Shown here: positions 9,474 through 64,000 of the stretch, in pieces
Layout: every line of letters starts with the position of its first letter
How positions within the stretch are numbered: position 1 is the stretch's first letter
Assembly: GCA_019828565.1 (NCBI GenBank)
Contig: JAHDYR010000005.1
Location: 1,189,842 to 1,253,841, forward strand
Origin: Carpediemonas membranifera BICM
Taxonomy: Eukaryota > Protista > Fornicata
Length of the DNA: 64,000 bases
Direction: 5' to 3'
The notes under the pieces: model-generated
The model's input: the letters and a program-made list of their open reading frames with translations, nothing else
Databases searched by the model: none
What the model was told of the DNA's origin: nothing
Made by a program: the position numbers and the translations under genes

Positions 9474-9499
9474 TCGTGCGACACGCATTGGGAGGGAAG

Positions 9500-9565
9500 T
9501 GTGCCCTTAACCTGCGGAATTCGTAAAACAGTCTTTATCATATTTCTGGGCCCTAGCACGGCACA
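9500..9565 (+). repeat. Gypsy-1 3' LTR (66 bp)
   Basis: Preceded by PPT, followed by TSD CCGC. Confidence 0.95.
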
Positions 9566-19473: not shown

Positions 19474-19887
19474 GTCATTCACCGGAGGAGCAGGCCAGAG
19501 TCACTTGCCATCTGGCGCATCATGAGGAGATATTGGAATGTGTTGATGTGTTTATTGACTAAATGAGCTGGAATTAGGCGGGTTTGATGTTGCTTACATG
19601 TTCTGTGGCATGCCTGATGTCCAAAGATGTATTTTGGCACAGTGATGTTGTTTAGTGTGCTCATAGCTGACCGCATAGTTATCTGACGTCAATGTGTCGT
19701 GTTGATGGCAACAAATCGATGGTAGCTCGCACGTTTGAGGTAGTTGCTTGTTGCATCGATGCAACGCACTTTAAGGATTAACCACCTGCACCCCATAGCC
19801 GTTTCCTAAGGCCAGATACGGTCCTCTGTAGCGTATATACACGCGTGAATTGGGACTAGATGGGACTAGATGCAGTGTTGTGGCATG
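19474..19887 (+). repeat. 414-bp direct repeat S1 (S2 at 24520-24933), bounding the YR-like/OTU-like cassette
   Basis: Near-identical copies. Confidence 0.93.
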
Positions 19888-24404: not shown

Positions 24405-24519
24405 AGATTTGGATATGCCCGTGTAGCCAGCGGTTCATGACCTGCAGCAGACATTTGGACGTACAGCGGGATACCACATCAATTAGGTCACTTGCGGGCT
24501 AAGATTGTCGTTGTCGATC

Positions 24520-24933
24520 GTCATTCACCGGAGGAGCAGGCCAGAGTCACTTGCCATCTGGCGCATCATGAGGAGATATTGGAATGTGATGATGTGTTTA
24601 TTGACTAAATGAGCTGGAATTAGGCGGGTTTGATGTTGCTTACATGTTCTGTGGCATGCCTGATGTCCAAAGATGTATTTTGGCACAGTGATGTTGTTTA
24701 GTGTGCTCATTGCTGACCGCATAGTTATCTGACGTCAATGTGTCGTGTTGATGGCAACAAATCGATGGTAGCTCGCACGTTTGAGGTAGTTGCTTGTTGC
24801 ATCGATGCAACGCACTTTAAGGATTAACCACCTGCACCCCATAGCCGTTTCCTAAGGCCAGATACGGTCCTCTGTAGCGTATATACACGCGTGAATTGGG
24901 ACTAGATGGGACTAGATGCAGTGTTGTGGCATG
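24520..24933 (+). repeat. Direct repeat S2
   Basis: Matches 19474-19887. Confidence 0.93.
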
Positions 24934-25001
24934 ATCTGCAAGATCGACCAGCCCCTGGATCACTTGGGCCTGCCTCCGTGCCCGGCCTGTTGCGATCAAT
25001 G

Positions 25002-26798
25002 ATGGTGATTACTTGCAACGAACGCGATCACCGGAAATTACCTTACCTTACCTTACCTGCAGGTACCATGGGTGTTCGTTTTCGTCTCCAAACGCCATGG
25101 TGTAAGAGCATAAAGTGCATTTTCTGTTTACTGTGCCGTTGGGGATTGATGGCGCTGGCGTAGGGGTGCTGTGTGGGCGCCAGTGATGACGGCGCCAGGG
25201 ATGAGACGCCAGGGATGAGGGAGCCAAGATGAGGGAGCCAAGATGAGGGCGCCAGGGATGAGGGCGCCAGGATGAGGCGCCAGGGATGAGGGCGCCAGGA
25301 TGAGGGCGCCAGGGATGAGACGCCAGGGATGAGGCGCCAGGGATGAGGCGCCAGGGATGAGGCGCCAGGGATGAGGCGCCAGGGATGAGGCGCCAGGATG
25401 AGGCGCCAGGGATGAGGCGCCAGGGATGAGGCGCCAGGGATGAGGCGCCAGGGATGAGGCGCCAGGGATGAGGCGCCAGGGATGAGGCGCCAGGGATGAG
25501 GCGCCAGGGATGAGGCGCCAGGGATGAGGCGCCAGGGATGAGGCGCCAGGGATGAGGCGCCAGGGATGAGGCGCCAGGGATGAGGCGCCAGGGATGAGCG
25601 CCAGGGATGAGGCGCCAGGGATGAGGCGCCAGGGATGAGGCGCCAGGGATGAGGCGCCAGGATGAGGCGCCAGGGATGAGGCGCCAGGGATGAGGCGCCA
25701 GGGATGAGACGCCAGGGATGAGGGCGCCAGGATGAGGCGCCAGGGATGAGGCGCCAGGGATGAGGGCGCCAGGATGAGGCGCCAGGGATGAGGCGCCAGG
25801 AATGAGGAGTACAGTATTAGAACCCCGAAAACACCATAATACCAACACCAATGAGCTTCATCAAAGAAAAGATATGCTCACTGGCGCCGGTTATGGCGTT
25901 TTCGGGGTTCGTCGACCATTCTGCTCCCAAATCTGCACCTGTATTTTCGTGAGCATGCCCGGGAGCTGGGCCAGACGAGTGGTGCCACAGGGACTAAGCT
26001 CCGCTGCTCAGCCTCTGCCAGGCGACACTCGTCTGAATTCTGCACGAAAAAATTCAGACGACGAATGATGGGCAAAGGGCCGCGAAAACGCTGAAGTACC
26101 AGCGCAAGTAGAGCGGTTTGCAATAAAATAGCTTACTTGCGCTGGTGCTGGCGTTTTCGGGGCCCTGAATTGCCCCGGGCGCTCTCCCGGGCTCCTCTCT
26201 CCCGCGCTCTTCTCCCCCGGGCTCCTCTCCCCTGGGCTCCTCTCTCCCGGGCTCCTCTCTCCCGCGCTCTTCTCCCCCGGGCTCTATCCTCCGGGGCTCC
26301 TGTCCCCAGCGCTCTTCTCCCCCGGGCTCTATCCTCCGGGGCTCCTGTCCCCAGCGCTGTTTCCCAGGCGCTCTGCTCTCTCCAGCGTCCTCACTCGTAA
26401 ATGTACGTTGCTGTCTTGTCTGCTTGATCTGATTTCATTTAGTGTGCACTTTAGGGGATAGTTTCATTGCAACGCCAAAATGGCGAGTTCAGGTTGTAGC
26501 AATGATCTGATGCGCGGAATGTACTAGAAAACATTGCAATTACAACGCAAAGCAGCGAAAAGCGGAGAAATCAACATCAATAACAACATCAACACCAAAA
26601 GAACAGTATCCCAAAGAATTGTGGGCGTTGCTGCGCCAAAGAGCAATAAATGACCACAAAGCATTCGCTTATGCACAATTAGCTGCCAGAAAGAACACTA
26701 CACCGTTACTTTGGATCATTCCAGTTCGCCGGAGATGACGCAGGTCCAGAACGCTGCCTTGGAGGGCTGGTGAAGCGGTAGTGTAGCGCTTACTCGCC
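25002..26798 (+). repeat. Long direct repeat copy 2 (VNTR-A2 about 25176-25808, VNTR-B2 about 26173-26385)
   Basis: Matches 16450-19430 with shorter arrays. Confidence 0.9.
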
Positions 26799-32599: not shown

Positions 32600-34713
32600 C
32601 TACTCTCCTTCCTTCTCCTCGCCTCTCTTCCTTCTCAGGTCAGACCTGAAGTTATCCATCTTGGCTGCTAGGGTGAAGCTGAGGGCTTCGTTGGTTGCCG
32701 AGAGTCGGGCCGCGCGGCTGAGTAAGTCCTCGTTCTCTTCGGTTAGAGACGAGCACTTCTCCGTTGTCTTCCTGAGGTCCTTCCGCATCTCGTCCAACGC
32801 AGCTTGGGCTGCTCTCCGGGCTTCCCGTTCTTCCTCCAGCTCCTGGCTTTTTGGCCTTGAGCTCGTTGATGGTTCTGGCTGCAGCTTCTTCCAGCTGTTG
32901 TCTGACCTCTGCTTCTCGCCGGGCCATGGCTTGGTCCAGCAGGGCCGCTATGCCTCTGCCCAGGTCGGTGTCCTCCTGTCGTGCTCTTTTTGGGCTGCAG
33001 GTCCTCTTGGTCCACCTGTCTGACCTGGCGGGTCTTGGCTGATGGGTTGGGGGGTATGGGGGGGGCACAGCTCTTAGTTGGAGGGGGCCCGGGCTCTGTT
33101 CGCTCTGTCCTGCTACTTTGCGGTTGTTCAGTGACAATTTGCCCGCGTGGAGGGCCATATAGGCCCCCTATGCCGCCATTCGGCAGGTAGACCTCCGTCC
33201 TCCTGTGGAGCATCTTGGCGAGTTCAGTAGCCCTTCGTCTCACCTTTGTTCGAAGCGCCTGCTTCCTCTCGGTCCTCAGTCTGTTCTTGGCGTTAGTGCT
33301 GGCGCCTTCCGGGAAAACACAGTTCAGCGTGTCCCATGGCTTCCCCCCTTTTGGGTGTTCCACGCCTGAGCCCGCCAGGGCGAGTTTGCCTATCCAGGAG
33401 GCGCTCCTCAAGGTGCCCACTCGCCTCTTCCCTCTTTCTGCTGGTTCATCCGTGATACCCCAGTCCCGGGGGAGGAACGAGGGGAGGAAGTTGATGGAGC
33501 CTGTCTCCGGGTCGACACACATGTTGGCCAGGGAGTTCTCGATCGTCGGCTGGGACCTCCGTGAAGTAGTTGAAGATCTTCTTCCTGGCTTCTCTGCCCA
33601 TGTGGCCTCCAGCTATGTCGAATTTGTGGACGGGCATCAAAGACGCCGCTTGGGATAGGGTCATCGTTTTGGTGTCGCTGACGTCTAGAGTAAGCATCTT
33701 TTCCGCGTCTATTTCCGTGGGCTCCCCCTCAGGTTCGCCCAAGGGAAACCGTCTTGGACAGCGTGGCGGCGCCCGTTCCACTCTGAGTGGATTTCCAGGA
33801 GGATGGGTCGCGCTGGTTCGCCTACTCTCGCGAGCGATTCTGGGTTTCCGATGATCACGGCTGTTCCTTCCAGGGCTCTGGTGATACCCTTTCCGGAGCT
33901 GAAATCGTTTTCCTCCCAGTTGGTCATGATAATCTGGCCCCGTTTGGGGTTCTTGGTGCCAAAGAGGTTGACTTGTTGGGACAATGGGGTTAGGCGACCG
34001 GCCGCCACGGTGCCGAGGCCGTGTCTGGCGTTGACTTTGGTCGCCAGGTCCTTGTATTCATCATGGTACGGCGACTCCCTGCCCATGAGCATGCTTCCTA
34101 GGGCTGTGAGGTGGGCTTCTACCTGCCCCCAGTCCCAGCCTGGGTTGTCTCTCATCCAGAACGCTGTTGCTAGTCTGGCGTAGAATATGGAGACATCTGC
34201 TAGGGCGCAGTGGCAGTGGTGGGGTGCGTGCTTGTGATAGGGGCACACCAATTTTGCCTCCGGGCGCTGTTGGTACCTTCTGGTCCAGGTCCGGCCCAGT
34301 TCGGACTGGGGTCGGGAGGGGAGGCCGGTGAGGCTCTTCTCCCCACTATTGGGGTAGAACCAGGTCAGCGTGTCGAGGATGTTGGGGAAGATCGTGTTGA
34401 GGTCAGTTTCATCCATGAGGCGTAAGCTTAGCCAGGTGCGGAGGTTCCCGTCTGGGACGAACTTCTCACTGGTCAGGATGCTTCTCTCAGCCTCGACTCC
34501 CTTAGCCACGATGTGGACGTGGGTCTTCTGTGGCCCCGAGTCGTCTTCCAGTCTCTTCAGCTCTGTAGCCATCTCGGTGCACCATCGCTTGGCGTGGGGG
34601 AAGTCTGCTTCGTATCCCTTGGGGGCTTTGCCCGTGGTGACGTCGACAAACGTAGCTGGTGGGCAGCCATGGATGTAGTGCCTGGCCCACAGACATTGGT
34701 CCAGGGCATCCAC
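32600..34713 (-). pseudogene. LINE-B upstream ORF(s), frameshifted: degenerate UPF1-like helicase motifs then coiled coil
   Basis: Chain of overlapping minus-strand ORFs inside the TSD; LTPLSQQV and ITRALEGTAVIIGNPESL; C-terminal heptads. Confidence 0.5.
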
Positions 34714-34740
34714 TGTGATGTCTCACTCTCAGAGACCTCG

Positions 34741-37524
34741 GCGTTCTCACTTCAGACGGCCTATCGCTTGGGCTCACACACTCTACGCCAGCGGCTGACG
34801 ACGTCGTCCTCCCAGTGTTCTCGGTGTCCGGATCAAGGCTACAGTCAGCCCTTGCAGACTACCGCTCGGGCTGGCAGTCAGTCCAAATACCCTCGGACGA
34901 GCTCCGCTCTCGCGTCGTGCCACTTCTGCGAGAGTTCTCAGACATCTTCGAGCCGCTCGGTCCTGAACCGGCCAACGTTCCCCCCATGGTCTTGCACGTC
35001 AAGGACGATACCCTCGTGCAGATTAAGCCGCGCCGCCTCTCGCCTGATAACAGGAAGAAGACGAAGGAGATCGTAGCGGAGCTCGCCCAGAATGGCATCG
35101 TCACTCCCTCCAAAGGCCCTTTCGCCTCACCTATCGTCCTCGTCAAGCAGAAAGACAAGACACGCATGTGCGTCGACTACTCGGAGCTGAACAAGCACCT
35201 CGTGGAGGATCACTTCCCGCTACCTAACATCAGAGAGTTTCTGATGTCCATGCGCGGCGCGAAGTGGTTCGCTGCTCTTGACCTCGTCAAGGGATATCAC
35301 CAGCTTCCCCTCCACGAAGATTCACAAGCCCTCTCCGCCTTTGTCACGCCAGACGACTACCTACAGTACACCCGCGTCCCGTTCGGCCTTGCCTCGGCGC
35401 CCTCGTACTTCCAGCGTACCATCCAGGCTGTCATAGCACCCGCCATTGCCACCGGCCGCTGCAAGGCGTACCTCGACGACATCCTCGAGGCCGCCCACTC
35501 AGATGACACGTTCATCGACGACCTGCGCACCATATTCATGGCCTTGCGGGAGCATAACCTCAAGCTCTCGCCCGCAAAATGCGTCATCGGCGCCTCCGAG
35601 GTCAGATCGGTCGGCTTTATCGTCGACCGAAATGGCATACATGTCGACCCCGACCGCATCCAGGCCATCGTCAGCCTCAGGCCCCCCCGGGACCAGTCTG
35701 AGTTGAAGTCAATCCTCGGAAAGATCAACTACATCGCACAGTTCCTGCCTGACGCCACCAAGTCACTCGCCACACTCAACCGGTCACTCAGAGCCGGCGA
35801 GTTCGTCTTCGGCGAGGAACAACTGACTGCTTTTGACGACATCAAGTCCCAGTTGGCGCTTCACATCAGCCTAACATACCCAGACCTCGATAGACCCTGG
35901 CACATTTACACCGACGCTTCATCACTTGGCGAAGGAGGCGTGCTAATACAAGATGAGGGAGGACGGTACTCGCTCAATTCTGGCCTGTTTCCAGAAGACC
36001 TACGACAAGACCATGTCGAATTGGTCAACATACGAACAAGAGTTGCATGCCGTGATCTCTGTCCTCACCAACAAGGTCTTCGAACCCCTCTTCCAGATCA
36101 AGTCTGACCTACATGTCCACACCGACCATAGCAACCTCGTCCAACTCAGACGGAAGGCCCCGACTGTCAAAAAGCTTCTCCGCTGGGCCCTACGACTATC
36201 CGAGTTTCGCTTCACCATTCAGCACGTCCGTGGCGTCGACAACGTCATTGCAGACGTCCTCTCCCGGATCCTCCCCGACGCGCCTGTAGTCAACGCTGTC
36301 GTCCAAGAGCCTCACTTCGACAAGTTCTCCGCCGTCCACAATGACGCGGTCGGACACTTCGGCGTCGACGAGTGCATTCGCCGTGTCAAAGCCGCCAAGA
36401 CCACGTGGCCTGGCATGTACAAAGACATCAGACGCTGGATCAAGGCCTGCCCCCACTGCCAGCTGCATGCCCCTGCCAGAGAGTGCCCCATCGCGTATCA
36501 CCCATCCTCCTCGGACGCTCCTTTCCACAGAGTTCAGGTCGACACTCTTGGGCCCCTACCCACCACGCCGTCGGGAAACTCCTACATCATCTCGATCGTG
36601 GACACCTTCTCCAGGTACATCAGACTGTTCCCAGCCACGTCCACTGACGCCCTCGCGGCCGCTCGCGCACTTTATGCTTACTGCGGTGCCTACGGCGTAC
36701 CTCGCGAGATCCAGTCCGACAACGGCTCGCAGTTCACAGCGAAGCTAATAGATGAGCTTACATGCGCACTCTCGTTGAATCACCGCTTTTCCGCCCCTTA
36801 CAGCCCACAGTCCAACGGCATTGTGGAAAGGTACAACTTCGAGATCGAAAAGATCATCAAGCCCGCTACGATGCAACCCTGGGACGAACATCTGCCCTCT
36901 GTCGAGCTTATCCTCAATTCCAAGCAGGTTTCGTCCACCAAGGCCTCTCCTCTGGACATCCTCTTCCCATTCACCGAAGGGAAGGCCGATCCTTCGCGCC
37001 TAAAGGCCGCCCGCGAAGCCCTCGCTCGCTACGCCGCCAAGAAGGCTGCAATTCCCACCAATGTGCCCCCCACGCACGAGCCCGGCTCTCTCGTACTCCT
37101 CCTTCGCCCGAAGTCCGCCAAGATCGAGGCAAACTGGCGCGGTCCGTTCAGATATCTGCGCCGCGGTGACCACACGTCGTCGTCGATCATCCAACACATC
37201 ACGACCGATAAGACCATGGAAGTTTCCGACCGCCGCATCAAGGCCTGGACTGGCTCCACGGACCTCGACGAGCTCAAGACCCTAGTCGCCGAGCAAGAGG
37301 GGGAGTACGCCGTAGACCACATCGTCTCGGCCCGTCGTCCAGCCAGATCGAAGACCATATACCTCCTAGTCCACTGGGCCGGGTGCGAGTCAGCAGAGGA
37401 TTCGGAGGTCACGCTCAACGCTGAGACAGCCCAGATGGCCGCTCTCGACGACTTTCTCAACGTCAGCCCTTCATGGAGACAGCCAGTCGAGGCCGCCTGC
37501 CGCCGCAATGGCTGGCAACTCTAA
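34741..37524 (+). CDS. Gypsy-2 RT-RNase H-integrase-chromodomain (1-nt frameshift near 35970)
   Basis: LDLVKGYHQ, YLDD, YTDAS, TDHSNL, CPHC, SDNGSQF, SNGIVER, YLLVHWAG. Confidence 0.93.
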
Positions 37525-45090: not shown

Positions 45091-45667
45091 CTTGACTGGC
45101 AAGCCTTTCTCACATACTACGCTTGATATCCAACGGGGGGGGAGAAGATTTACTTTAGAAACCCCGGTCTCCGAAGTAAATATTCGGGACTTACCTGCGC
45201 TCCGGCAACCTATGTAAGTCGAACGTGCTCATCTTACCGGATGAGCCGTACATCGGCCTTGGCCGATGCGGGCAGACGGGTTGTACATCCCCTTCCACGT
45301 CTTTCCTCTTTCAATCAGGCGTTGTAGGGTAGCCCGAATGCCCAGATGTCCTTGTAAACCCCCATGTATGCTTTCGATCAGGTCAGTATGGCTCGTATCG
45401 GCACTTTGTAGGTGTACTAGACGGGACAAGCCGTCTGCACCGCCGTTGGCCACTCCTGGTACGTGTTCCACGGAATAGTTGAATCGTGCCATGGCCAGAT
45501 GCCACCTAACCACCTTAGCGTTGGCAGAGGTGGCCAGGTAGAGCAGATTTTTGTGGTCAGTGCGCACAACGAACTCTCGTCCGATCAGTAGTCGCTCTGC
45601 CTTCTGCATTGCGAAATAAATCGCGAACGCCTCCTTCTCATACGTCGACCATCGGCGTTGAGTAGCG

Positions 45668-45744
45668 AAAGAAAGAAAGAAATTTACGTTTGCCTGGTAT
45701 CAGGCCCCGGACTGAGCTTGCTTTCCCATTATCCTGGAGCTGAG
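45668..45744 (-). mobile_element. 77-bp 5'-truncated LINE stub in Gypsy-3 RNase H
   Basis: 16-bp TSD TCGGCGTTGAG(T/A)AGCG at 45652-45667 and 45745-45760; (TTTC)n tail. Confidence 0.85.
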
Positions 45745-46665
45745 TCGGCGTTGAGAAGCGTCGAATGTCTTCGAGTAAAAGGCGATCGGACTGGGACCTG
45801 ACGCGGATTCTTGCATCAGTACGGCACCTGCTGCGACATCACTTGCGTCGGTCTGCAATATCAGCTTCGACCCAGGCTTGGGGTGTACGAGCATTCTGTT
45901 GTCCAGCAGGCAGGTCTTGACGCGCTCAAATGCGTCTTGTTGGTCTGGTCCCCACTCAAACTTCCTGTTGGCCCGGGTGAGGGCCGCAAGGGGCTCAGTT
46001 ATGTCCGCGTAGCGCTCAATCATGGGGCGGAAGTAGTTAACAGTCCCCAAGAGCGTACGAAGCGTCGACAGGTCACGGGGGGGCGCAAGATCGTGAATTC
46101 CTTGCAGGCTATCCTCTGCGATCCTCTTGCCGTCGGCGCTAACGGTCCATCCTAGATAATCGATCTCGGACGCAGCGAAGATGCACTTCTTCGCATTGAG
46201 ACGGAGTCCTCGAGCGTGGAGTTTTCCGAGAACGGTCTCCAGGCGACGTAGAAATTCGGTTTTGTCCCGGCCGTAGACCACTACGTCGTCCACGTACACC
46301 AAACAGGGCCCGTTGGCAGTACGCTGCAGCATTTTTTAGCCCAAAGGGTATCCTCGTATAACAGTATTTGACACCGTCAACGATAAAGGCCGTCATATCC
46401 TGGCATTCGCGTTTCAACGGGATTTAAAGAAACGCCTTGCTCAAATCAAGGGCTGCAAAGTATGAGTTGCCCTGCAGCCTCTCTACGAGGTCGTCTATTA
46501 GAGGCAAGGGGTGGGTCAGGTCAGTCGTGATCTCGTTCAGACGTCTAAAGTCAAGGCACACGCGACGTGTACGGTCCCGCTTCCAAGCTAACACAACCGG
46601 GTTGTTGTACTGGCTCTCGGAACGTCTTATAACCGCCATGTTGCAAAGCTCCTCGACCTGCCGCT

Positions 46666-48057
46666 TCATCTCTTCCACTTCGCCCTCGCCGTAGCGGTAG
46701 GGCGGTACGTTGACCACTCTGTCATGTCGAAGGTCCAACCCGAATGGCTCCACATCGGCCGGCTCATCAATACCTCCGAACAACCCCCTAGCTTCGCTAA
46801 CACCTCTTCGACCTCCACGGTCAGGTCCATTATCACCGGCTTGGCATCATTGGTCTTCTGCGCGCTCGACAGGTAGACTTCTTCGTCAAACTCATCGCCC
46901 TCCAGCTCCAGGAACGTCTTGGTCCCTTCTCCAGCTGTTGGTAGATGGATTTCCACCAAGCCCAAGGCCGTTAGCGTCGGGAATCCGAACACTATCTGCG
47001 GCTTAAGCCTCGGTAGGATGTAGAGTACTAGCTTCGCCGTAGTACGGCGTCCTGTCTTCGGAATAACTCCTAGATCGATGTTGACTTCGATCTTCTCATG
47101 CACGTTGTAAACCGTCCCGCCTTGCAATCGAACCTTCACATTTGTGGGGATAATTTCATCCGCGAACCCCAACTCGTCGATCAACGTCTTGTCGACAAAA
47201 TCTGCGTCGGCCCCGGTGTCTAGCAATGTGTTAACGTCGCGACCGTCTACACACACCACGGCTTCAGGACGCTTCGCGGTCCCCTGGGCGACCAAAGAGG
47301 AAGAAGACAGAGAGAAACAAGCCTGAGTTTTTACACCCTTCTTGCGTTCGTCCCTCTGCTTCTTCCAGCACTTTGTGGCATCGTGGCCCACCTTGTTGCA
47401 GTAGGGGCACTTGGTAGACGCCTTGTCTTCATGCTTCTTCTTGGTCTTCTCGCCCTTCGACTCAACTGACTGACGCTGCGCCTCACGTCTACCCTTCTCA
47501 GCCTCCAGGGCTAGCTCAAAAGCCACCTTCATGGTCTCCTCCAGATCCTTGCTCTTCTTCTTGGCGCCGATTCGCTCTCTCAGGACTTGATAGCGGACTC
47601 CCGCGACGAACGCCTCCACGAGTTGCTTGGCTTGAGGCTGCAGCTCGCCGAAGTAGGAACACGTCTCCTTGAATTTCAGCACGTAATCGGCCATGTTCTC
47701 GACGAGATTGCCCGACTCGGGGCAATTCAGCTTCTTCAGCCATTCGATGGCCTCTAGCTCGTCGAGAGGTTGGAACATCTTGTTAATTAGGTCGATAAAC
47801 TCCTCGTTCCACTCCGTCTCACGATCGGGGTCATGCTCATCCATCGGTTCATCCACCACCTGGAGAAAAGAGCCCAGCATGGGAGAACGGCACTTAAACG
47901 TTTCGAGCACTTCGTTTGACACCAGGTCGAAAATAGCAATCGGATCACGGCACATAGCGGCATAAGCACGCCAGGACTTAACCATATGGCGCCACTCCGC
48001 CACAGAGACCTTATTAAGGTAGGGTGCGTAGTTCAGTACTGTTTCCGGTACTACCAT
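46666..48057 (-). CDS. Gypsy-3 gag-protease
   Basis: CCHC knuckle, DTGA. Confidence 0.88.
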   Translation of the reverse strand: MVVPETVLNYAPYLNKVSVAEWRHMVKSWRAYAAMCRDPIAIFDLVSNEVLETFKCRSPMLGSFLQVVDEPMDEHDPDRETEWNEEFIDLINKMFQPLDELEAIEWLKKLNCPESGNLVENMADYVLKFKETCSYFGELQPQAKQLVEAFVAGVRYQVLRERIGAKKKSKDLEETMKVAFELALEAEKGRREAQRQSVESKGEKTKKKHEDKASTKCPYCNKVGHDATKCWKKQRDERKKGVKTQACFSLSSSSLVAQGTAKRPEAVVCVDGRDVNTLLDTGADADFVDKTLIDELGFADEIIPTNVKVRLQGGTVYNVHEKIEVNIDLGVIPKTGRRTTAKLVLYILPRLKPQIVFGFPTLTALGLVEIHLPTAGEGTKTFLELEGDEFDEEVYLSSAQKTNDAKPVIMDLTVEVEEVLAKLGGCSEVLMSRPMWSHSGWTFDMTEWSTYRPTATARAKWKR

Positions 48058-48136
48058 GGCAATATATATTGTTGCAGCAGGAAACACAGAGAGTGATTTA
48101 ATTGATCCGGGGTAAATCAGTCATCAATTGATTACA

Positions 48137-49278
48137 ACAACTACCTTTTCAACCTTGAAGACGGTGGATTACTCATTGACTTCGGCTCTGCCATCAAAAT
48201 AGAGGCTCCTACTGGGATTAACAGGTATATGGGACAAGACATGAGAGGGACACCTGGTTTTATCCCCCCCGAGCTTCGTGCCGACGAGCTCAGTCGGAAA
48301 TCGAAGCATTGTACAGTAGCTATGCGGGAACCACAGAATTTGAACCCCTTCCAGGCTTCCAGGAACACCACAACCAGAAACACCAACATGCACACAGTTG
48401 ATGCGGCATACGACATCTTTTCCTGCGGCGTTATCGTCCTCATGATGGCATTGAGACTGGATAAGTCTCCATTTCGATCTGTGCGAGTGGATGGTGGCAA
48501 ACCAAGTAACCCAGACGAGCATATTGGCGCTCTATATAACATGGCGTACTTCTATGGCCGCGGAATCAAGATACACAACAAGAAGAAGAATGCAGCCCGT
48601 GGTTTGATGATCAATCCGACTCTCTGCACGAGAGGAAGCCCTCCGACACCGTATAGGAGCCTTTACGACCTTGCAATGGGGATGCTCAGCTATAATCCGG
48701 AGGATAGACCCACAGCTTTGATGTGCGCTGAACATCTCAACGATATCGCCGCCCTAGCAGTAACGTTCGCATCTACACCACTGATGATCAACGAACAGGT
48801 GACAATCTCTCAGGAAACGCTCGCTGCCGCCAAACTCACCGTTGAAGCACTTCGAGATACCCGATTTGCTGGCCGATGCATTGCATGTGGCATGTCGGTT
48901 CACGATAGTCGAGCACTAACCTGCAAGACACACCACCAAGATTAGCTACTAAACGCTGAAAGGCGGATCAAAAAGAAGCATCAAAATTCAACTGCCCAGC
49001 GGAGCAGGTTCGTCAAGTGGCCGGAGATGCCGCTTCCAGTCAAGCGAATGCCCTACAGCTCACCATTTCCGTCCCCGCAGCTGTATCCATCCCCCACTCC
49101 GCCTTCAACGACAGCCCCCGCCACGCCTCTTGCAAGTCCGCCTCCATCTCCTGTCCGCAGTTTACCGCCCAGTATCGAATCACCTCACTACCATGATTCA
49201 ATTGATGAGCACATTTACCCAAGCTCTATTTCTTCTACCGGCGGTGATGGTGGATCAAAGCACTTGACTACGCGGTAA
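48137..49278 (+). pseudogene. Protein kinase C-lobe plus CxxC module and Pro-rich tail; N-lobe cut off by Gypsy-3; in-frame TAG at 48943
   Basis: NYL..LIDFG..GTPGFIPPE..DIFSCGV..YNPEDRPTA; FAGRCIACG. Confidence 0.8.
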
Positions 49279-49762
49279 ACATCATATATATGGCTTTCGT
49301 TCCATGTCCAGACTGAACAATAACCTTCTTACACATTGGGTAAATCAGAACCTCGAGCTCTATCCTGGACCGCGGGTGAAACTCATATCTCGCACCGTTA
49401 GTGAGGTACAATGAGACTAAAGCATCATCGACGATTGCGACTTCACACTTCCTCTTTTCCTTGCACCAGGAGCCAATGGGATCATCATCACTCAATGTGT
49501 CATGATGCGTAACGGTACCAGAGACAACGTAGTTCAACACTCGAAGAAGGCCGTCAGTGCCAGTTTGACCTGAGGCACATTCTTCTCGAGTGTAGGACGC
49601 TCTTATGTCCGCAAGCAAGGCGCCATGGTCGCGATAGAGCATCTTCTTAATACTCATGATCTTATCGTTCCTCTCAGCGCTTTCCGTGTTGCTCATTGCA
49701 AGTTGCTCAAGCATGCGACAAACCCAAAATTGATAGATTACGTTAGGACGATTGGAATACAT
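49268..49762 (-). CDS. Hypothetical protein
   Basis: Open frame only; no motif recognised. Confidence 0.35.
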   Translation of the reverse strand: MYSNRPNVIYQFWVCRMLEQLAMSNTESAERNDKIMSIKKMLYRDHGALLADIRASYTREECASGQTGTDGLLRVLNYVVSGTVTHHDTLSDDDPIGSWCKEKRKCEVAIVDDALVSLYLTNGARYEFHPRSRIELEVLIYPMCKKVIVQSGHGTKAIYMMFTA

Positions 49763-49787
49763 TTCCTTACATGTAAATGACAGAAAA

Positions 49788-50345
49788 ATGGCTAGAACGA
49801 AACAAACGGCCAAGAAGAGGCAGCAGGAGCACCAACAAAACAAGCGATTGGAAGGTAAGCTCCTCTCACGCCATCGGTTGTCTTTGCCAACCAATGCTAA
49901 GGCCGTTTTCACCACCAACGCCATGATCTTGAAGAATGCTGCTGATTATGGCATTGACAGTCAAATCAAACGTCTCACTGGCCATTTCGATATCAATGTC
50001 GTCGAACGCCTGAATGGTACCGTCATGAGACGCTTAAGAGCGCTCCTGCTGGACGCCCGCGACGACAACTGGCCCGCATACCTGCCCATCGCCCAGCACG
50101 TTATCAACGCCACCCGCCACTCCACCACAGGCCTCAGCCCCTTCGAACTATTGTTCGGACGCAAGTCAACCATGCTGCGCGTCGCGCCCGACGCCCTGAC
50201 CAACGCAACCCAGATGCTCGAGCCTGGCTCAGTCGAAGCCGACGGCATCGTCCGCTTCCAGGCCTGTGGTACCCAAACAATTGAGAGAGTGAAATTTAGA
50301 AGCAGGTTTGAGATCATTGACCAAATAAGACTGATCATTAAATGA
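49788..50345 (+). CDS. ORF with histone H3-like N-terminus (MARTKQTAKK), fused in frame to a 264-bp Gypsy-1 integrase fragment
   Basis: 9/10 identity to H3 MARTKQTARK; no histone fold seen; 50001-50264 matches 8658-8921. Confidence 0.55.
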   Translation: MARTKQTAKKRQQEHQQNKRLEGKLLSRHRLSLPTNAKAVFTTNAMILKNAADYGIDSQIKRLTGHFDINVVERLNGTVMRRLRALLLDARDDNWPAYLPIAQHVINATRHSTTGLSPFELLFGRKSTMLRVAPDALTNATQMLEPGSVEADGIVRFQACGTQTIERVKFRSRFEIIDQIRLIIK

Positions 50346-50545
50346 GGTCGTCATGACACTTCCCCCCATGATCCCAAACCGTCCACAAGCTCAAACGTGC
50401 CTCCCAACCGTCAGCAAAAATTCCAACGGTTCAAGTCCGGCGAAATGCAAAACCCGCCAGACCGACTCCAGTGAAGTCAAAAACGCAATTGAGCACAATA
50501 GTCTGAAGAACGCTGTTCTAAACGAACAAATAGCGCACAGAATGG

Positions 50546-52720
50546 TGTAGAACATAAGAAATAACCAATATCAGTAACTAGATTCCAACGTTCTGCTCTT
50601 CCCCCCCTAGGCTGCGGTCACCAACTGGGCAAAACCCCAAAATGAGCCGTTGGTTATTAGCGCTGCCTATAGGAAGCTAATTTCCTTTGACCTCGGAGTT
50701 TTCTGCGCAAACTCGGTTTGTCTGCGAGGTACTCCTCAAACGCCCTAAGTTCATCAAGGTCGGCGTTGAAGCGTTCCCATGTCGCCTCTTCCTCGAGGTA
50801 CCCCTCCCACAGCACATGTAGGTGAAGGACGCCGTCCTCAAATTTGTGAGAGTCGATCGCTTCTACGACATATTCGTCAACTCTCTGGGCCGCGAGCCGT
50901 GTCAACTCAGCCCTTGTCGCGTCAGACTCAAAATGTCTTAGACGCTCGGCATGGACCTTAGCCACTACGCCTGTCGTCAGGTTCTCCACGTAGTAAACGT
51001 TCGGCGACTCTGCGGGTCCCTGGCACCACATTGGCCCAGCCAGCTTCGTGCGGCGGCCGACAGTGGTCGTTACCAGCACTGGCTTGTTCGATAGGGCCAC
51101 GTGTGATGCTTCTGATGGTGTTTGTTGTTGCAGCGCCTGGTCTTGGATGACTCTCTGTAGTTCCAGGCTGCGCTTGAAGGCCTCAAATGGCATCTTGCTC
51201 TCATTGCTCATGATCTCTTCTGGTCTTACGACCACGTCTTGGTTATAAAGCAAATTCAGTGGCGATAGGCCTGTCCTGGCCACAGATGTTGAATTAATGA
51301 TGTACTGAGCCAAAGGTAGTAGCCGCGTCCATCTAAACTCCTGCAGATCGAGCATTAGCGTCTCTAGATGCCTCTTAACCTCGGCGTTGACCCTCTCAAC
51401 TATTCCTTGAGAACCCGGGCGGTAAGGCGTGCCGACGTGATGTTGCGACCCGAGCCTTTCCATTAGAGCGTCAATCAGCTTATTTCTATACTGGCTGCCC
51501 CCGTCGCTGTGAATCACCCGGGGAATTCCGTAGTGACCCACCCAGGCCAAAATTGCCCCTGCCGCGGCATCTGCGTCCGTCGAACGCGTGGGGACCAGCA
51601 TAGTTAGCTTCGAGTACGTGTCAATTAACACGCACACGTACCGCAGACCCTCGCTCTCCGCGATGGGTCCGATCGTGTCTACCTGCACGACATCAAACGG
51701 CAGGCGACCTGCCGTACGGTGGCGCAAGTGTTGGACGGGCTTGGCCGTCTTGCGCGTGACCTGGCACACAGGACACGACTGGACAAACTCCTCTGCGTCC
51801 TTATACATGCCCCTCCACCTCCTACCGAGCGATATAAGCTTGTTCACCGTCGCTCTCGCTCCGAGATGGCCGTGTATGCCTCCGTGAACCTCGGAGATCC
51901 ACGTGGCGTGATCATCTGCCTCGACTGTTGCACCGCATAGGCGAGATAGCGCGTCGGCAGCACCGTTCGCTTGACCAGGCACGTGTACGACGGAATAGTC
52001 GAACCTTTCCAGTGCCATGCGCCATCTAGTTACCTTAGCGTTCGTGCTTGTCGCGATATACAGCAAATTCCGGTGGTCCGTTCTCACAGTAAACGGCCTG
52101 CCTACTAGGAACCGCTCGGCCTTGATCATAGCGTAATAAATGCCGAAGCCTTCCTTTTCATAGGTGCTCCACCTTCTTTGAACATCCGATAGTGTCTTGG
52201 AATAGAAAGCAATCGGACGCTCCTCCCCGTCTTCGATCTGTAACAAAACTGCCCCGACAGCGTAGTCACTCGCGTCGGTTTGTAGGATTAATTGGCAGCC
52301 ACGCTTGGGGTGACTTAACATGTTGTTCTGAGATAGGGTCGCTTTGATGTCGACTAGGGCATCTTGTTGGGCCTTCTCCCAACGGAACTCTTCCTTGGCT
52401 CTCGTCAGAGCCAGGACTGGCTCCATCATATTGCCGTAGTTCGGAATCATATGGCTAAAATAGTTCGTGAACCCGAGTAAGGTTCTGACTCCGGCAACAT
52501 CTCTCGGGCTGGTTAGGCGGTCGATGCCTTCTAGGCGGTCAGGCGCGATTCGCTTGCCGTCGCCATTCACAAGCCAGCCCAAGTATTCTATTTCTGTCAG
52601 TCCGAACTCAGACTTGGACAGATTCAGCTTCAACTTGGCCAGTTGAGCTTTCTCAAGACATAGTCCAGATTGTCGAGGTACTCTCTCTGGTTCTCTCCGA
52701 ATATTACTATGTCGTCCATA
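50546..52720 (-). mobile_element. Gypsy-4 3' part (RT from YMDD, RH, IN, chromodomain, PPT, possible 52-bp LTR 50546-50597)
   Basis: pol ORF 50657-52633; PPT GGGGGGGAAG at 50598-50607; LTR call weak (starts AG, not TG). Confidence 0.85.
50657..52633 (-). CDS. Gypsy-4 pol (RT end, RNase H, integrase, chromodomain)
   Basis: QTDASD, TDHRNL, CPVC, SDGGSQY, SQGIVER, HVLWEGY. Confidence 0.93.
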   Translation of the reverse strand: MKLNLSKSEFGLTEIEYLGWLVNGDGKRIAPDRLEGIDRLTSPRDVAGVRTLLGFTNYFSHMIPNYGNMMEPVLALTRAKEEFRWEKAQQDALVDIKATLSQNNMLSHPKRGCQLILQTDASDYAVGAVLLQIEDGEERPIAFYSKTLSDVQRRWSTYEKEGFGIYYAMIKAERFLVGRPFTVRTDHRNLLYIATSTNAKVTRWRMALERFDYSVVHVPGQANGAADALSRLCGATVEADDHATWISEVHGGIHGHLGARATVNKLISLGRRWRGMYKDAEEFVQSCPVCQVTRKTAKPVQHLRHRTAGRLPFDVVQVDTIGPIAESEGLRYVCVLIDTYSKLTMLVPTRSTDADAAAGAILAWVGHYGIPRVIHSDGGSQYRNKLIDALMERLGSQHHVGTPYRPGSQGIVERVNAEVKRHLETLMLDLQEFRWTRLLPLAQYIINSTSVARTGLSPLNLLYNQDVVVRPEEIMSNESKMPFEAFKRSLELQRVIQDQALQQQTPSEASHVALSNKPVLVTTTVGRRTKLAGPMWCQGPAESPNVYYVENLTTGVVAKVHAERLRHFESDATRAELTRLAAQRVDEYVVEAIDSHKFEDGVLHLHVLWEGYLEEEATWERFNADLDELRAFEEYLADKPSLRRKLRGQRKLASYRQR

Positions 52721-53658
52721 CTGTCAACATCCCTAGATTATCTTTGCTAAACCCTAGATTATCTTCGACCTCAAAAAGCTAGATAATCTACGGTTGCAAG
52801 AAAAAATGAACTCGACGATGAGCCGGAGCTGGATCTTCAAAGTGGTATGGTAGTACTTGGCTATACCTAAGCAATACGCATGCGCAGTATCAAACTTTAA
52901 ATCCTGCTAGAAAAAAGTAACATAGGGACAAATTGGAATTGAGAGTTGAGACTCAAAAAACGGGCAGGGGGGAGGAAATGGTCCATAAGTACGCCTTATG
53001 GGTCGCTTCCTCCCCTCTGCCCCTTTTTTTATCGCAAAATCGATTTGCCGGATTTGACACATGTTTGATGTGATCAAAATGGATTTGATAGACATGGGTC
53101 CAGATCATGCAGTTGGCCATCCTGAAGCGCTAGGGCGGTCTGCAGACCGCAGCAATGCCTCTGCTGAATGCCCTTCGCCTGACGGACAGGACGCGCGTTG
53201 ACTCTAAAGGACTGCATGTTTCGGCATTAAAAGAAGGTGTGGAATACAACGGAGTCATCGCCGAACCGCTCCGACCAAGTCGGTTATTAGGACATCGCGT
53301 TCAGACGCCCTCTGCAATTACCAAGTCAATAGATGGGAGTCGACCTGATCAGCACGTCATTCGGGGTCTCAGGTGACCCTATAGCTGAGCTTGGCTGGGC
53401 TCTGCTGCGGCCATGGGCCGCTAGCGCGCTGCTTGGCTCTTTTTCTCCTCGTAAGGCGGCCGTAGAGGTCTGATCTGAGCCTCGTTATAATAGTCTGCCC
53501 GAGTAGAGGCCAGCCATACCATAAATGCCCCCCATTCCCCCCTCCCGGTCGCTCATACCTCCAAAATGGCCTATATTCCCTGTAGGAAGCTTAATAAGGG
53601 CGGATTTCCCATAAGTCGTGGCATAGAGGTGTAAACATATCCATTGACTCTGAATCTT

Positions 53659-54588
53659 TTATTTCTCCATCTGCGAGTTAAGCCAGGCCACTGCCTTTCC
53701 CGTCAAATATACCTTACGTGTGTCGTGCGCCTTCTTTGTTGCTCTTGCGGCTGAAGCATCAACAGTGGCCTGCTTCAACAAATCTCGGCAGCTAGACTTC
53801 GGCGTCTTGGTGCCACGCCGCGTGCAGGCCCACTCTCTATCGTCCACGGACTCACCACACACAACGCATGACCCTGCGAATACGGTCGGTGGCTTCTCCT
53901 TCAGCTTCTGTCGAAGCAGATCGCACATCGCGGTCTTGACGACGCGTCGAGACAATTCATGCGTGCGCAGGGTACTAACAGGCTCAACCAACAGCTCTGT
54001 CTGAGTAGACGCCTCCTCTAGGTCTCGCACAGTCTGAGTCTCTGCATGCTCACCCTGTGGCGAAAACTGCTGGCATTTTCCCACCATCCTCGGCTTATCA
54101 GGATCAGGACCCAGCGCAGTCATGTAAACAGGTACCTCAACCCGCTTCTCGACTATCCTGACAGGCTGGGAGTCCCTGCGGGAAGGGGCTTGCGGGTGAA
54201 CTCGCGTCCTGGTCGGCCCCCCGTTCGCCTCGTTGTGCAGAGCCTCCATGAAGGCATTGAAGCCGTCATCACGGCCCACCTTCTGCGTCACAAACGACAT
54301 GACGCATGTGACCGACATCTCAAAGGATGCAAAATCGGCAGCACTGGAAACATCGCGATTGTGGCAGATTGAGTTTCGAGCTGCCAACAGCTCGCGTATA
54401 TGTCTCTTATCAGCGTGGTGAAGATCAGGAACACGATGTAGGATCGCTTGCAAAAGCATAGCCGGATCCATCTCGCCACCGTCACCACGGTACCTCGCGA
54501 TGTACTCCTGCAGCTTCGGAATCATCCTCAGTAGCGCTTCAAACATCATGCTGGCGTATCCTGCTGAATCCTTCACCCCAGAGCTCAT
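53659..54588 (-). CDS. HEPN (Swt1-like) domain plus C-terminal Cys module, copy 1
   Basis: MDPAMLLQAI..IRELLAARNSICH (Rx4H); CVVC..WAC..C. Confidence 0.65.
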   Translation of the reverse strand: MSSGVKDSAGYASMMFEALLRMIPKLQEYIARYRGDGGEMDPAMLLQAILHRVPDLHHADKRHIRELLAARNSICHNRDVSSAADFASFEMSVTCVMSFVTQKVGRDDGFNAFMEALHNEANGGPTRTRVHPQAPSRRDSQPVRIVEKRVEVPVYMTALGPDPDKPRMVGKCQQFSPQGEHAETQTVRDLEEASTQTELLVEPVSTLRTHELSRRVVKTAMCDLLRQKLKEKPPTVFAGSCVVCGESVDDREWACTRRGTKTPKSSCRDLLKQATVDASAARATKKAHDTRKVYLTGKAVAWLNSQMEK

Positions 54589-54891
54589 ATCGGTTTCTTC
54601 AGAACGAAATTCTAAAAGAAATGTTCGGTGGTAAGTGAGATCACTGCGCATCTAGAGACAGCAGAAACGTAACCTACAGCCCATATTGATGTGGGCTGGT
54701 CTTATCCGGATGTCCAAGGACCTTGATTCGCTCTGGGGTAGTCCCCCCATGACCGTCAGGCACGCGAACCGCATCCTGCACGAAGCGGGGATGCAGAGTC
54801 TGAAAAGACCCATCTCTCTGTCCGATCTGGATACCCCTGACGATAGATGGAATGAATGAAGCTGTAAACATATCCATTGACTCTGAATCTT

Positions 54892-55821
54892 TTATTTCTC
54901 CATCTGCGAGTTAAGCCAGGCCACTGCCTTTCCCGTCAGATATACCTTACGTGTGTCGTGCACCTTCTTTGTTGCTCTTGCGGCTGAAGCATCAACAGTG
55001 GCCTGCTTCAACAAATCTCGGCAGCTAGACTTCGGCGTCTTGGTGCCACGCCGCGTGCAGGCCCACTCTCTATCGTCCACGGACTCACCACACACAACGC
55101 ATGACCCTGCGAATACGGTCGGTGGCTTCTCCTTCAGCTTCTGTCGAAGCAGATCGCACATCGCGGTCTTGACGACGCGTCGAGACAATTCATGCGTGCG
55201 CAGGGTACTAACAGGCTCAACCAACAGCTCTGTCTGAGTAGACGCCTCCTCTAGGTCTCGCACAGTCTGAGTCTCTGCATGCTCACCCTGTGGCGAAAAC
55301 TGCTGGCATTTTCCCACCATCCTCGGCTTATCAGGATCAGGACCCAGCGCAGTCATGTAAACAGGTACCTCAACCCGCTTCTCGACTATCCTGACAGGCT
55401 GGGAGTCCCTGCGGGAAGGGGCTTGCGGGTGAACTCGCGTCCTGGTCGGCCCCCCGTTCGCCTCGTTGTGCAGAGCCTCCATGAAGGCATTGAAGCCGTC
55501 ATCACGGCCCACCTTCTGCGTCACAAACGACATGACGCATGTGACCGACATCTCAAAGGATGCAAAATCGGCAGCACTGGAAACATCGCGATTGTGGCAG
55601 ATTGAGTTTCGAGCTGCCAACAGCTCGCGTATATGTCTCTTATCAGCGTGGTGAAGATCAGGAACACGATGTAGGATCGCTTGCAAAAGCATAGCCGGAT
55701 CCATCTCGCCACCGTCACCACGGTACCTCGCGATGTACTCCTGCAGCTTCGGAATCATCCTCAGTAGCGCTTCAAACATCATGCTGGCGTATCCTGCTGA
55801 ATCCTTCACCCCAGAGCTCAT
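54892..55821 (-). CDS. HEPN (Swt1-like) domain plus Cys module, copy 2
   Basis: One amino-acid difference from copy 1. Confidence 0.65.
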   Translation of the reverse strand: MSSGVKDSAGYASMMFEALLRMIPKLQEYIARYRGDGGEMDPAMLLQAILHRVPDLHHADKRHIRELLAARNSICHNRDVSSAADFASFEMSVTCVMSFVTQKVGRDDGFNAFMEALHNEANGGPTRTRVHPQAPSRRDSQPVRIVEKRVEVPVYMTALGPDPDKPRMVGKCQQFSPQGEHAETQTVRDLEEASTQTELLVEPVSTLRTHELSRRVVKTAMCDLLRQKLKEKPPTVFAGSCVVCGESVDDREWACTRRGTKTPKSSCRDLLKQATVDASAARATKKVHDTRKVYLTGKAVAWLNSQMEK

Positions 55822-56364
55822 ATCGGTTTCTTCAGAACGAAATTCTAAAGAAATGTTCGGTGGTAAGTGAGATCACTGCGCATCTAGAGACAGCAGAAAC
55901 GTAACCTACAGCCCATATTGATGTGGGCTGGTCTTATCCGGATGTCCAAGGACCTTGATTCGCTCTGGGGTAGTCCCCCCATGACCGTCAGGCACGCGAA
56001 CCGCATCCTGCACGAAGCGGGGATGCAGAGTCTGAAAAGACCCATCTCTCTGTCCGATCTGGATACCCCTGACGATAGATGGAATGAATGAAGCTGTAAA
56101 CATATCCATTGACTCTGAATCTTTTATTTCTCCATCTGCGAGTTAAGCCAGGCCACTGCCTTTCCCGTCAGATATACCTTACGTGTGTCGTGCACCTTCT
56201 TTGTTGCTCTTGCGGCTGAAGCATCAACAGTGGCCTGCTTCAACAAATCTCGGCAGCTAGACTTCGGCGTCTTGGTGCCACGCCGCGTGCAGGCCCACTC
56301 TCTATCGTCCACGGACCCACCGCACACGGCATTCATGATTCCAAGGTCTAATTATTTACTCGAT

Positions 56365-59874: not shown

Positions 59875-60534
59875 ATGAAGCTCACCAACAAGGCAGATAC
59901 TGTGATTACGGCGGAGGAATACCAGCAATACTACTCCTCTGATGACTTTGAGTCATTTGTTGCGGCCTGTGATGAAGCAGGCATTCGTTCTGCCCACAGC
60001 ACCACGTTCTCCGTCACAGTGGACAAGAATGGCTTCAACAGCGAGCTAGATCTGGCCATGGTGCCTCAGCATGCGCTTATGGGGCCGACAGTGGGCGATG
60101 GTATCCTTACCAACAAGAGCATCCCCAACGACGCAGTCATTGGCATATACTGCGGCAAGATCATCCCCGAGCCCGAACCTGGTGCAGTCACGACCTACGT
60201 GACGAGGCTCAAGAAGCCTAACAACTTTGCTGTTGACTCGGCCGGCCTCACGTTCGGCTGTCACAAGATCAACGATGGTGCCGCTTTCTACAACGTCGTA
60301 CCGGGGACGGCCTACGTTAATGTGCAGGTGGGGGACCAGAAGAAGCGTCTTCCCGTCATTCTTTACTTGGCGGATCGCGCTATTGCCAAGTTCGAGTACC
60401 TCTCGATCGAGTATGGCGAGCAGTACTGGCGTGGACGCAAGCCCATGGCCCTCTACCCCTTCTGTCTGGAGAAGATGCTTGCTGAGGCTGAGTATGAGGA
60501 GATCAACGATGTCTTAGACGCCGTTCTCTCCTAA
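59875..60534 (+). CDS. Stand-alone SET-domain lysine methyltransferase-like protein
   Basis: VGDGILT..IGIYCGKII..HKIND..YNV..ADRAI..YLSIEYGEQYW. Confidence 0.8.
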   Translation: MKLTNKADTVITAEEYQQYYSSDDFESFVAACDEAGIRSAHSTTFSVTVDKNGFNSELDLAMVPQHALMGPTVGDGILTNKSIPNDAVIGIYCGKIIPEPEPGAVTTYVTRLKKPNNFAVDSAGLTFGCHKINDGAAFYNVVPGTAYVNVQVGDQKKRLPVILYLADRAIAKFEYLSIEYGEQYWRGRKPMALYPFCLEKMLAEAEYEEINDVLDAVLS

Positions 60535-61968: not shown

Positions 61969-64000
61969 TTACTTCTTCACTGACCATCTCCTCCTCTTCA
62001 GCCCGGGAGGAACCTTGCGCAGAGTGGCGTGTCCCCTTGTCACTTCGACCGCATACTCGATTTCCCACTCGCGACACTGTTGGGCAAAACACGCCAGGGC
62101 GCTCTGGCCGTTTTCGTTGGGCTTAAACGCGACATGTGTCACCTTGCCCTCCCTCAGACTTGCTAAAAACGTACATGCCGACGACTGGATCGATCTTTGG
62201 GTCAAAATCCCGGACAACATGGAGGTATGCAACGGACTTTCCAGTCATTGAGCACCAGGCTTCAACAGCCCACTGAGTTAACCACTTCTCCTGCATGATT
62301 GGCTTACCGATGTTGCCCTCCTCCGTGACAGTGTGTACACTGCACACTTCATGGAAAAGTTCGTCCCGGAGACCCTCCTCGGGCCGCCTGTACCCCGGAG
62401 TGGCCCGCCGGTTCATCTCTATCGCTTCCTTGTATATCTGCTCGCGGTAGTTGTCCGCCTTCGTCTCCCGCTGCACACTGCTCTTCATTCGTCATCGTCT
62501 CCCAGCTCTTGAACGCATGAGGCTCCCGTGACGCCCTCGATCATCATGAGGCAGTGTGTTATACAGTTGCCGTGGGGCAGGGTTTTGTATCTGACCCACT
62601 GCTTGCTCTTCTCCAGCTGATTGGCGACGTCAACTCTAAACTTGACTTCCCTGCTCCTCATCTGCTCGGAAGCTGGGTCGACGTGGTCGACCTGGACATA
62701 TTCAACGTCCGACTCAGCCTCCGAATGCCACCTCGTTGTCTGCCTCTTGCTCCCTTATCTGCCTCACGCTTCTCTCTGACTCTGCATTCACCTCTGACTC
62801 AGCCATCTCGTCCTCCTGCTCCTCCTCCTCTGCCTCACCCCTCCTCCACTGGCTCCCTCTTCCTCCTCTGACTCCTCCTCCGAGTCCTCTGGCCTGACCT
62901 TCTCGGGCTCAGCCTGGATGCAGGCGTCGCATTTAGTCATCCTCCTCATGTGACTCACCCTTCCTCTCCTCTGTCACCAGCTCCTCGTGTGCCTCGCGCT
63001 TCTTCTCCTCTGTCACCATCTCCTCCTCGTCTGACTCCTCTGAGTTGTTATCGACATCAGCGATCTTCTGAGGGATTGTCATGAGGGCCTTGCGCTTCAT
63101 GTGGATTGTGTCGCTCTTCCCCGTACGGCGGGGGGTACTCGTTCGTGCTTGGTGTGTGCCCGACTGGGGTAGGTCGCGGCAGAAACGGCGCGGGTGTCGG
63201 GCTGGCACCCATGGAGATGTCAGCTGCGTACCCCACGTCTTGCAGCAGCCTCGTGACGGTCTCCTCCAGCTCGAGTACTCTCTTCTGCGCCTTGTGATGG
63301 AGCACTCGTGCCTCCATCGGAAGAGATGGGAGGTCTTTGTGAATCCAGTCCTTCATTTCGAGCAGCTTGGATACGCGAAGGTATCTGTCGAACTGGACGT
63401 CGACGTGGTTGTCCCCAGCAACCGCAGCTGACTCTCGAGAGGCGCGAATGCGAAGCTCGCCGTGCACCTCCTTCTGGACTCTATGCCACAGGACGTAGTT
63501 GCGAGCGTTATTGTCCTCCCACTCCTTGAGCTTCTGGGCGATCTTTCTCTCGCGCCGGCGCTTGATCGCGCGTTCTCTAATCTCATCGTCGGACTCGTTG
63601 TCAAAGTCCACCTCACTCTCACTGTCGCACAACTCAGAATCGTCGACGCCGCTCTCTTCACCACTGTCCACGCCACTCTCATCGTCGACGAGGTTCTTTC
63701 TTAGCGCTCTCGGCGCTTGCCCCTTTGCCCTTGTCCTTCTCCTCGGCGTCAATGGCCTCAATAATGGCCTTTACGCGCCTTGCGCTTCTCCTGGCTATAC
63801 ACGATATCAGCCTGGTTGTCGTCAACCCACTTCGCCAGCGCGCCGGGCTTCTTGGAACTTCTTGGTCCGGCGAGGTGCCATAAACTGCTTCTTCAACTTA
63901 TCCTGGAGCTCTTCCTTCTCGTCCTTCGTGAGGCGGAATTTCGTAGTGATATGGTTCAGGTTGAGTTTCCTATATAAGCATTGCTATGACTACAAACGCT
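61969..64000 (-). pseudogene. Second OTU-like gene: N-terminus near-identical to 22807-23895, divergent OTU domain; frameshifted; runs off the window
   Basis: TLPHGNCITHCLMMIE (about 62540-62585) and VTRGHATL (about 62020) parallel VKSDGNCVAYCLQAIE and DPAHATL. Confidence 0.7.

Follow-up and report, generated by a model that had tools for sequence, protein, structure and literature searches.

Among the closest described systems are the human N-terminal H3 mimicry proteins (H3TMs), such as VRK1, BCL11B and PCLAF, for which Chen et al. 2021 (PMC8166343) give the sequence rule iM-Z-R-X-K, with Z permitting removal of the initiator Met. For Carpediemonas, the Supplementary Fig. 7 legend of PMC8516963 describes three types of H3, divergent ones included. 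We analysed a stretch of Carpediemonas membranifera DNA of 64,000 nucleotides (the window), in which an N-terminal copy of the H3 tail had been reported on a non-histone ORF.

The decapeptide MARTKQTAKK is encoded at 49788-49817 (+ strand) and starts on the ATG at 49788. It matches the canonical H3 start MARTKQTARK, taken as seen at the head of 38 viral-contig loci, in 9/10 positions, with R8K as the sole change and with both K4 and K9 at their H3 positions; the original prediction was thus verified in sequence and frame. The run A1-R2-T3-K4-Q5-T6 is exact, leaving the K4 context intact, and the presumed start, the first ATG in the frame, gives M-A-R-T-K, in line with the H3TM rule. An A-rich run precedes this ATG. 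We favour, at a probability of about 0.55, the reading that the first 70 codons of the frame (Table 1) are a dead 5' stump, left by a non-histone gene whose first ten residues derive from histone H3. The sequence makes an H3-derived tip on a non-histone frame probable, and the present allele is probably dead.

Table 1. Features at and around the H3-tip ORF (positions in the window).
Feature	Position	Strand	Remarks
Protein kinase, C-terminal two thirds, with Cys module	48137..48945	+	5' part cut by LTR 48069-48136
Orphan ORF, 142 codons from Met at 49696	49268..49696	-	Divergent, ~90 bp from H3-tip ATG
Native part of H3-tip ORF	49788..49997	+	70 open codons; 47% GC; basic (14 K/R, 5 D/E)
Possible 47-nt intron	49855..49901	+	AG/GTAAG donor, non-standard AAG acceptor; not adopted, rival gene model only
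Chromovirus integrase core fragment, in frame	49998..50264	+	264/267 bases (98.9%) identical to 8655-8921; 64% GC
Likely 3' LTR of minus-strand chromovirus 50657-52723	50265..50358	-	TG...CA, adjoining pyrimidine run; limits read from sequence
SET-like gene	59875..60534	+	Pfam E 0.048 (weak); 10 kb from H3-tip ORF

With six frames and the window's own composition, 2.6e-6 matches of at least 9/10 are expected per window (1.9e-6 with the Met kept), and 0.5-0.65 such matches over 250,000 windows. A chance origin within a single window is very unlikely; at the scale of a scan it is small but not nil. The match, being far beyond single-window chance, supports the favoured reading. Around K9 the ORF has A-K-K-R in place of ARKS, with R8K and S10R altering both flanks, where H3K9-type mimics require A-R-K-S/T. 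Chromodomains and K9 methyltransferases recognise the ARKS context. Because this context is broken, a decoy for chromodomains or K9 methylases is unlikely, and use as a target of chromodomain proteins, which had been proposed, appears from the sequence to be the least likely of the suggested functions.

The ORF from ATG 49788 is open throughout its 185 codons and had been treated as one gene, but it is a chimera of 70 native codons, an integrase piece (codons 71-159) and a remainder that reads into an LTR. The source of the integrase piece sits within the integrase of the element at 4648-9565. GC content steps up from 47% to 64% at the 49997/49998 joint and, because there is no LTR at this left junction, we infer a deletion or recombination joint. 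On the right, the LTR at 50265 ends the integrase piece and gives the chimeric ORF its last codons and its stop. The native block as a whole (48137-49997, ~1.86 kb) has 49% GC, alongside the 64% GC integrase piece, lies between retrotransposon DNA on both sides and is single copy within the window. Its contrast in GC with the integrase piece counts in favour of the favoured reading.

Were the 185-codon chimera a live new gene, its H3 tip with attached integrase piece would serve to decoy host silencing factors or rival chromoviruses. The joint is in frame and all 185 codons are open, but a third of joins are in frame by chance. The integrase piece is recent, with 3 differences in 267 bases; it begins within the core domain and runs out in an LTR. 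A look-up of the exact protein also showed it to be absent from the protein collection and its K9 context is broken, and we hold this reading to be very unlikely. The original prediction of a working decoy or substrate is not supported either, the gene being broken at codon 70 and no intact copy having been found among the sequences searched.

The statement that no histone fold is visible after the motif was borne out for the present DNA. Over three frames of the 1.2 kb that follow, an H3-fold HMM built from 10 H3 proteins gave at best 2.1 bits, compared with 121-191 bits for 35 viral H3s, and Pfam gave no histone family for the H3-tip ORF. A second weak stretch in the HMM search, at ORF residues 110-171 (4.7 bits), was rejected as it falls in integrase and LTR DNA. 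Similarity to H3 ends at residue 10, with nothing in frame resembling K14, K18, K23, K27 or the RPG motif in the 70 residues. That residues 11-70 are unlike H3 supports a non-histone body; that the similarity stops at residue 10 counts against the favoured reading. With the gene broken off after 70 codons, the absence of the fold is not final.

We found no relatives of the 70 residues among proteins of 124-2000 aa (0/30 candidates), in Pfam, in the PDB, in the Atlas or in viral contigs (0/79 stretches), and nothing in metagenomes for the exact DNA of this part. The viral-contig searches gave no support to a viral origin for the H3-tip frame. When ten proteins of the window were looked up exactly, two were present in the protein collection and the H3-tip ORF was absent; since the public C. 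membranifera annotation was produced after repeat masking (PMC8516963), missing from it says little on repeated genes. A single-sequence structure model of the 70 residues (pLDDT 71.5, pTM 0.29) has three helices, including 35-54 and 57-64, which as modelled suggest the opening of a folded domain rather than a linker behind a tail, in support of the favoured reading. Searching with this model gave a best Z of 4.8 among 48,161 chains, from generic helices only. Residues 55-69 resemble the C-terminal motif of tyrosine recombinases; this candidate was set aside, the residues lying too close to the start and Pfam giving no support. That these searches found no relatives counts against the favoured reading, under which conservation of the tip and the nature of the body are putative.

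The same DNA could instead be what remains of a divergent, CenpA-like or other H3 variant whose N-terminal extension was long and whose fold lay beyond the break. The decapeptide itself gives some encouragement here: of 42 metagenome loci that carry MARTKQTAKK, 24 encode H3 proteins with the fold, which also counts against the favoured reading. Long inserts between tip and fold occur in L036 (~170 residues) and L009, Carpediemonas is reported to have the three H3 types cited above, some of them divergent (PMC8516963), and a gene cut at codon 70 could have lost its fold. Yet in 23/24 of the fold-bearing metagenome loci the fold motifs start at most ~80 codons from the ATG, and similarity from K14 to K27 and to RPG is absent in frame. 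Five H3 genes and one CenpA are moreover already listed for C. membranifera, and no resemblance to the 70 residues was found among proteins of 124-2000 aa. We consider an H3 variant unlikely, though the likeliest of the rivals.

The other 18 of the 42 metagenome loci comprise two cut by contig ends, two bacterial matches and 14 without a fold, the last judged on the DNA available (567-1530 bases; 1.2-kb scan). These 14 form ~8 groups and may include spliced or broken genes. Of the 38 viral loci that carry the canonical decapeptide, 35 have the fold, one is cut off and two are non-histone. To judge from these sequences, H3 tips on non-histone frames are a recurring design, and this, together with the agreement with the H3TM rule, lends support to the stump of a non-histone gene.

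An AT-rich, intron-free, virus-like contig encodes a 263-aa H3-tip protein without a fold (L011:742-1530, - strand), two genes away from a SET-like ORF; the protein forms a singleton cluster on 7 contigs, and the search for relatives in viral contigs gave only 1/52 stretches, an ordinary H3 matching via its tail. From giant-virus bins come L075:3098-4030 (- strand), an ORF with an H3 tip, no fold and then KKRGRPK repeats, which we presume to resemble AT-hooks, and L062:4001-4435 (+ strand), an ORF with 22 H3 residues and no fold in a cluster of 8. L003, L010, L017 and L035 are fungal-looking H3-tip genes, three of them (L003, L010 and L035) with a Cys-rich PHD/ADD-like finger downstream; Pfam returned no PHD match for the fingers of this set. 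L018, L028, L030 and L031 have a C2H2 finger, with the motif inside a longer open frame.

Prokaryote genomes (596 Gb) gave three matches to the decapeptide, two of which (L044, L045) arise opposite a conserved membrane helix, in a protein that we take to be cytochrome oxidase III. Such a chance antisense origin is a trap for six-frame motif reading. The Carpediemonas decapeptide might likewise be a chance shadow, either as the antisense of a 218-codon minus-strand membrane protein, or as an off-frame reading of a spliced gene that starts at ATG 49777. Consistent with the former, no stop interrupts the minus-strand frame at the motif, where it reads the hydrophobic segment FLAVCFVLAI, and its 182 open codons are the longest among 46 rows, a point against the favoured reading. 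Consistent with the latter, ATG 49777 and the 47-nt intron of Table 1, which has a good donor, join the later codons in frame without a frameshift. The expectation of 0.5-0.65 matches of 9/10 at scan scale also speaks for chance.

Against a shadow, a hydrophobic antisense reading arises in all 46/46 rows that code the decapeptide, and so carries no independent weight. For the 76 codons of the minus-strand extension (49697-49924) the score is -28.0 bits, on a coding model that learned from soluble proteins, is biased against membrane segments and fits the block poorly, the minus core itself scoring -4.6 bits. The first exon of the spliced alternative scores -0.7 bits versus +4.6 bits for the H3 frame, its intron would end in the non-standard AAG, and donor-like hexamers are plentiful, with 70 in the window. 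The motif, finally, starts exactly at the first ATG of the 70-codon frame. Taken with the frame scores that follow, we regard a shadow as distinctly improbable.

Across the 70 codons, the H3 frame is the best of six, with +14.0 bits versus -1.9 bits for the next, and it exceeds the antisense frame with which it shares wobble positions by ~26 bits. In calibration, the true frame came top in 116/128 windows, and 1/23 training ORFs was mis-framed. This ranking supports the favoured reading. The signal for coding versus non-coding DNA is modest, at 0.5 bits, a value attained by 221/246 coding, 12/174 non-coding and 231/1230 off-frame windows, and counts against it. A 107-nt intron ending at 49961 was rejected, as it would delete 20 codons of positive coding score (+3.9 bits).

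A further possibility is that a longer H3 tail was shifted out of frame after K9 by loss of one base, through decay or an assembly error. The out-of-frame continuation AAGAPTKQAIG, which reaches the donor at 49855, can be aligned with a gap to H3 residues 11-23, a resemblance equalled by 67/3000 random sites, and one-base differences do occur between tandem copies in the window (near 54615 and 55848). The alignment score is, however, equalled by 242/3000 shuffles of the same 41 bases, and the coding score of this frame is negative (-3.3 bits). The resemblance was noticed post hoc and there is still no histone fold downstream, and we give this reading very little credence.

The nearest neighbour of the H3-tip ORF is the minus-strand orphan of Table 1, whose frame stays open to 49945, across the motif. 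The head-to-head layout of the two start codons fits a normal divergent pair and is a further point in support of the stump of a non-histone gene. Searches with the orphan gave nothing usable among proteins of 77-245 aa; just unnamed viral clusters appeared, at 0.90-0.91 and with low recognition, and these were not usable. A structure model of the 218-residue minus-strand frame has a pLDDT of 43.

A kinase with a Cys module had been placed next to the H3-tip ORF. Kinase and module are both real, but the 142-codon minus-strand ORF lies between. Relative to P0001 the kinase lacks its first ~110 residues, and it is ~31-36% identical to members of a C. membranifera kinase family. Its relatives are confined to two clusters with eight named members, all from C. 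membranifera (among 1.84 billion representatives); the neighbouring kinase is, by these matches, multi-copy in this organism, which we count in favour of the stump of a non-histone gene. The window holds three occurrences of the Cys-module pattern C..CG.{7,11}C (48877, 53868 and 55101). Because the kinase module is found again in the tandem ORFs at 53659 and 54892, a common origin of the cargo-like genes that bear it is suggested. The tandem array itself (53627-56327, - strand) has a 1233-bp unit encoding a ~310-aa protein with a weak HEPN-like match (E 0.015), the kinase's FAG.C..CG.SV.D module and a possible short 5' intron.

A SET gene ~10 kb away, also part of the original prediction, holds up through its paralogue P0010, a named SET protein of C. 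membranifera that is 76% identical and has an E of 6e-4; the window protein taken by itself is weak. Pfam gave no chromo family for the 'chromo-like' gene near 61300. The SET and H3-tip frames are 10 kb apart in a patchwork window, with at least two unrelated retrotransposon pieces between them, and nothing found in the window ties the SET gene to the H3-tip block.

Ty3-type retrotransposons with chromodomains, tyrosine-recombinase elements, LINEs, tandem arrays and gene fragments together make up the patchwork of the window. The chromovirus LTRs are very short, ~68-100 bp (254-354, 364-431, 4648-4746, 9498-9565, 48069-48136 and 50265-50358). One chromovirus family is split into two halves at a distance of 43 kb (364-1892 and 45229-48136, - strand), which have 46 bp in common (1847-1892 = 45280-45325), pointing to rearrangement or nested insertion. 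Read from their translations, the integrase chromodomains (791-1855, 7422-9473, 35953-37524 and 50657-52723) differ; the aromatic set, which we assume to be Y/W/Y, is kept in two of the four and partly lost in two. A block of short tandem repeats is present in two copies with common unique flanks (16450-19887 and 24517-26798), perhaps marking the termini of one large DNA element.

A 337-codon frame at 33709-34722 (- strand) carries the HxH motif KTHVHIV together with a helicase-like motif at its C-terminus; Pfam gave no support, and we presume it to be a rolling-circle Rep from its looks. Four geminivirus-like Rep sequences are described for C. membranifera in PMC8516963. The frame at 22923-24404 (+ strand) encodes a 493-aa acidic protein with no Pfam match, which has a C. 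membranifera hypothetical protein as a named mate in its 90% cluster; a partial inverted copy lies at 62901-64000. Near its C-terminus is a DGNC...H pattern, which we liken to an OTU protease.

If the stump of a non-histone gene is the correct reading, a gene with an H3 tip would once have been one of a block of cargo genes associated with transposons. Translation from ATG 49788 and removal of Met before Ala would expose A1-R2-T3-K4-Q5-T6, and the free ARTK end could then engage readers or writers of the H3K4 end, of the PHD, WD40 or ADD type. By analogy with human H3TM peptides in vitro, the tip may tether the protein to chromatin factors or titrate them. A later chromovirus insertion and a deletion would have removed the rest of the gene, leaving the present, non-functional in-frame join.

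A broader reading, which we consider improbable, is that Carpediemonas harbours a candidate, hitherto undescribed mobile element with a chromatin tool kit comprising the H3-tip protein, the Cys-module kinase, SET and the OTU-like protease. Intact copies would, on this speculation, titrate or recruit the host H3K4 machinery via the free tip and thereby evade silencing; the chromosome machinery of this lineage is strongly reduced. As it stands, the locus means little, being one broken orphan frame. Intact copies that share a mobile unit with the kinase and SET genes would make it an H3-tip mimic carried by a transposon of a metamonad and, if true, a direct test of selfish DNA using histone mimicry against silencing; among the literature matches listed, where subscription papers are thinly covered, we found none on such transposon-borne mimicry. 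Of greater use than the locus itself is the census, in which public contigs commonly have H3 tips on non-histone frames and the decapeptide can also be a chance product of the strand opposite a membrane helix.

Set against the known systems, the Carpediemonas frame shares with the H3TMs an iM-Z-R-X-K start on a frame without a fold, and its match is the longer, at 9/10. The H3TMs, in contrast, are intact human proteins for which peptide binding and methylation are shown in vitro (PMC8166343), whereas the Carpediemonas frame is a truncated orphan in a transposon patchwork, known from sequence alone. It has the decapeptide in common with the divergent and single H3s of protists and giant viruses (PMC9145170; L001, L004, L012, L036 and L040), but the present DNA has no fold, RPG motif or distal tail. 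With the viral histone-mimic motifs (PMC11738798) it shares a short copy of a histone tail on a non-histone frame in a selfish-DNA setting; unlike them, its motif is at the true N-terminus, and viral origin and interference with the host are putative. Like the uncharacterised H3-tip ORFs (L011, L075, L062, L003, L010, L035, L018, L028, L030 and L031), it has a tip followed by unrelated sequence. No similarity to these was detected past the tip, and several of them are long and open whereas the Carpediemonas frame is cut; L011 has in addition a SET-like neighbour (Pfam E 0.0098), as does the Carpediemonas locus.
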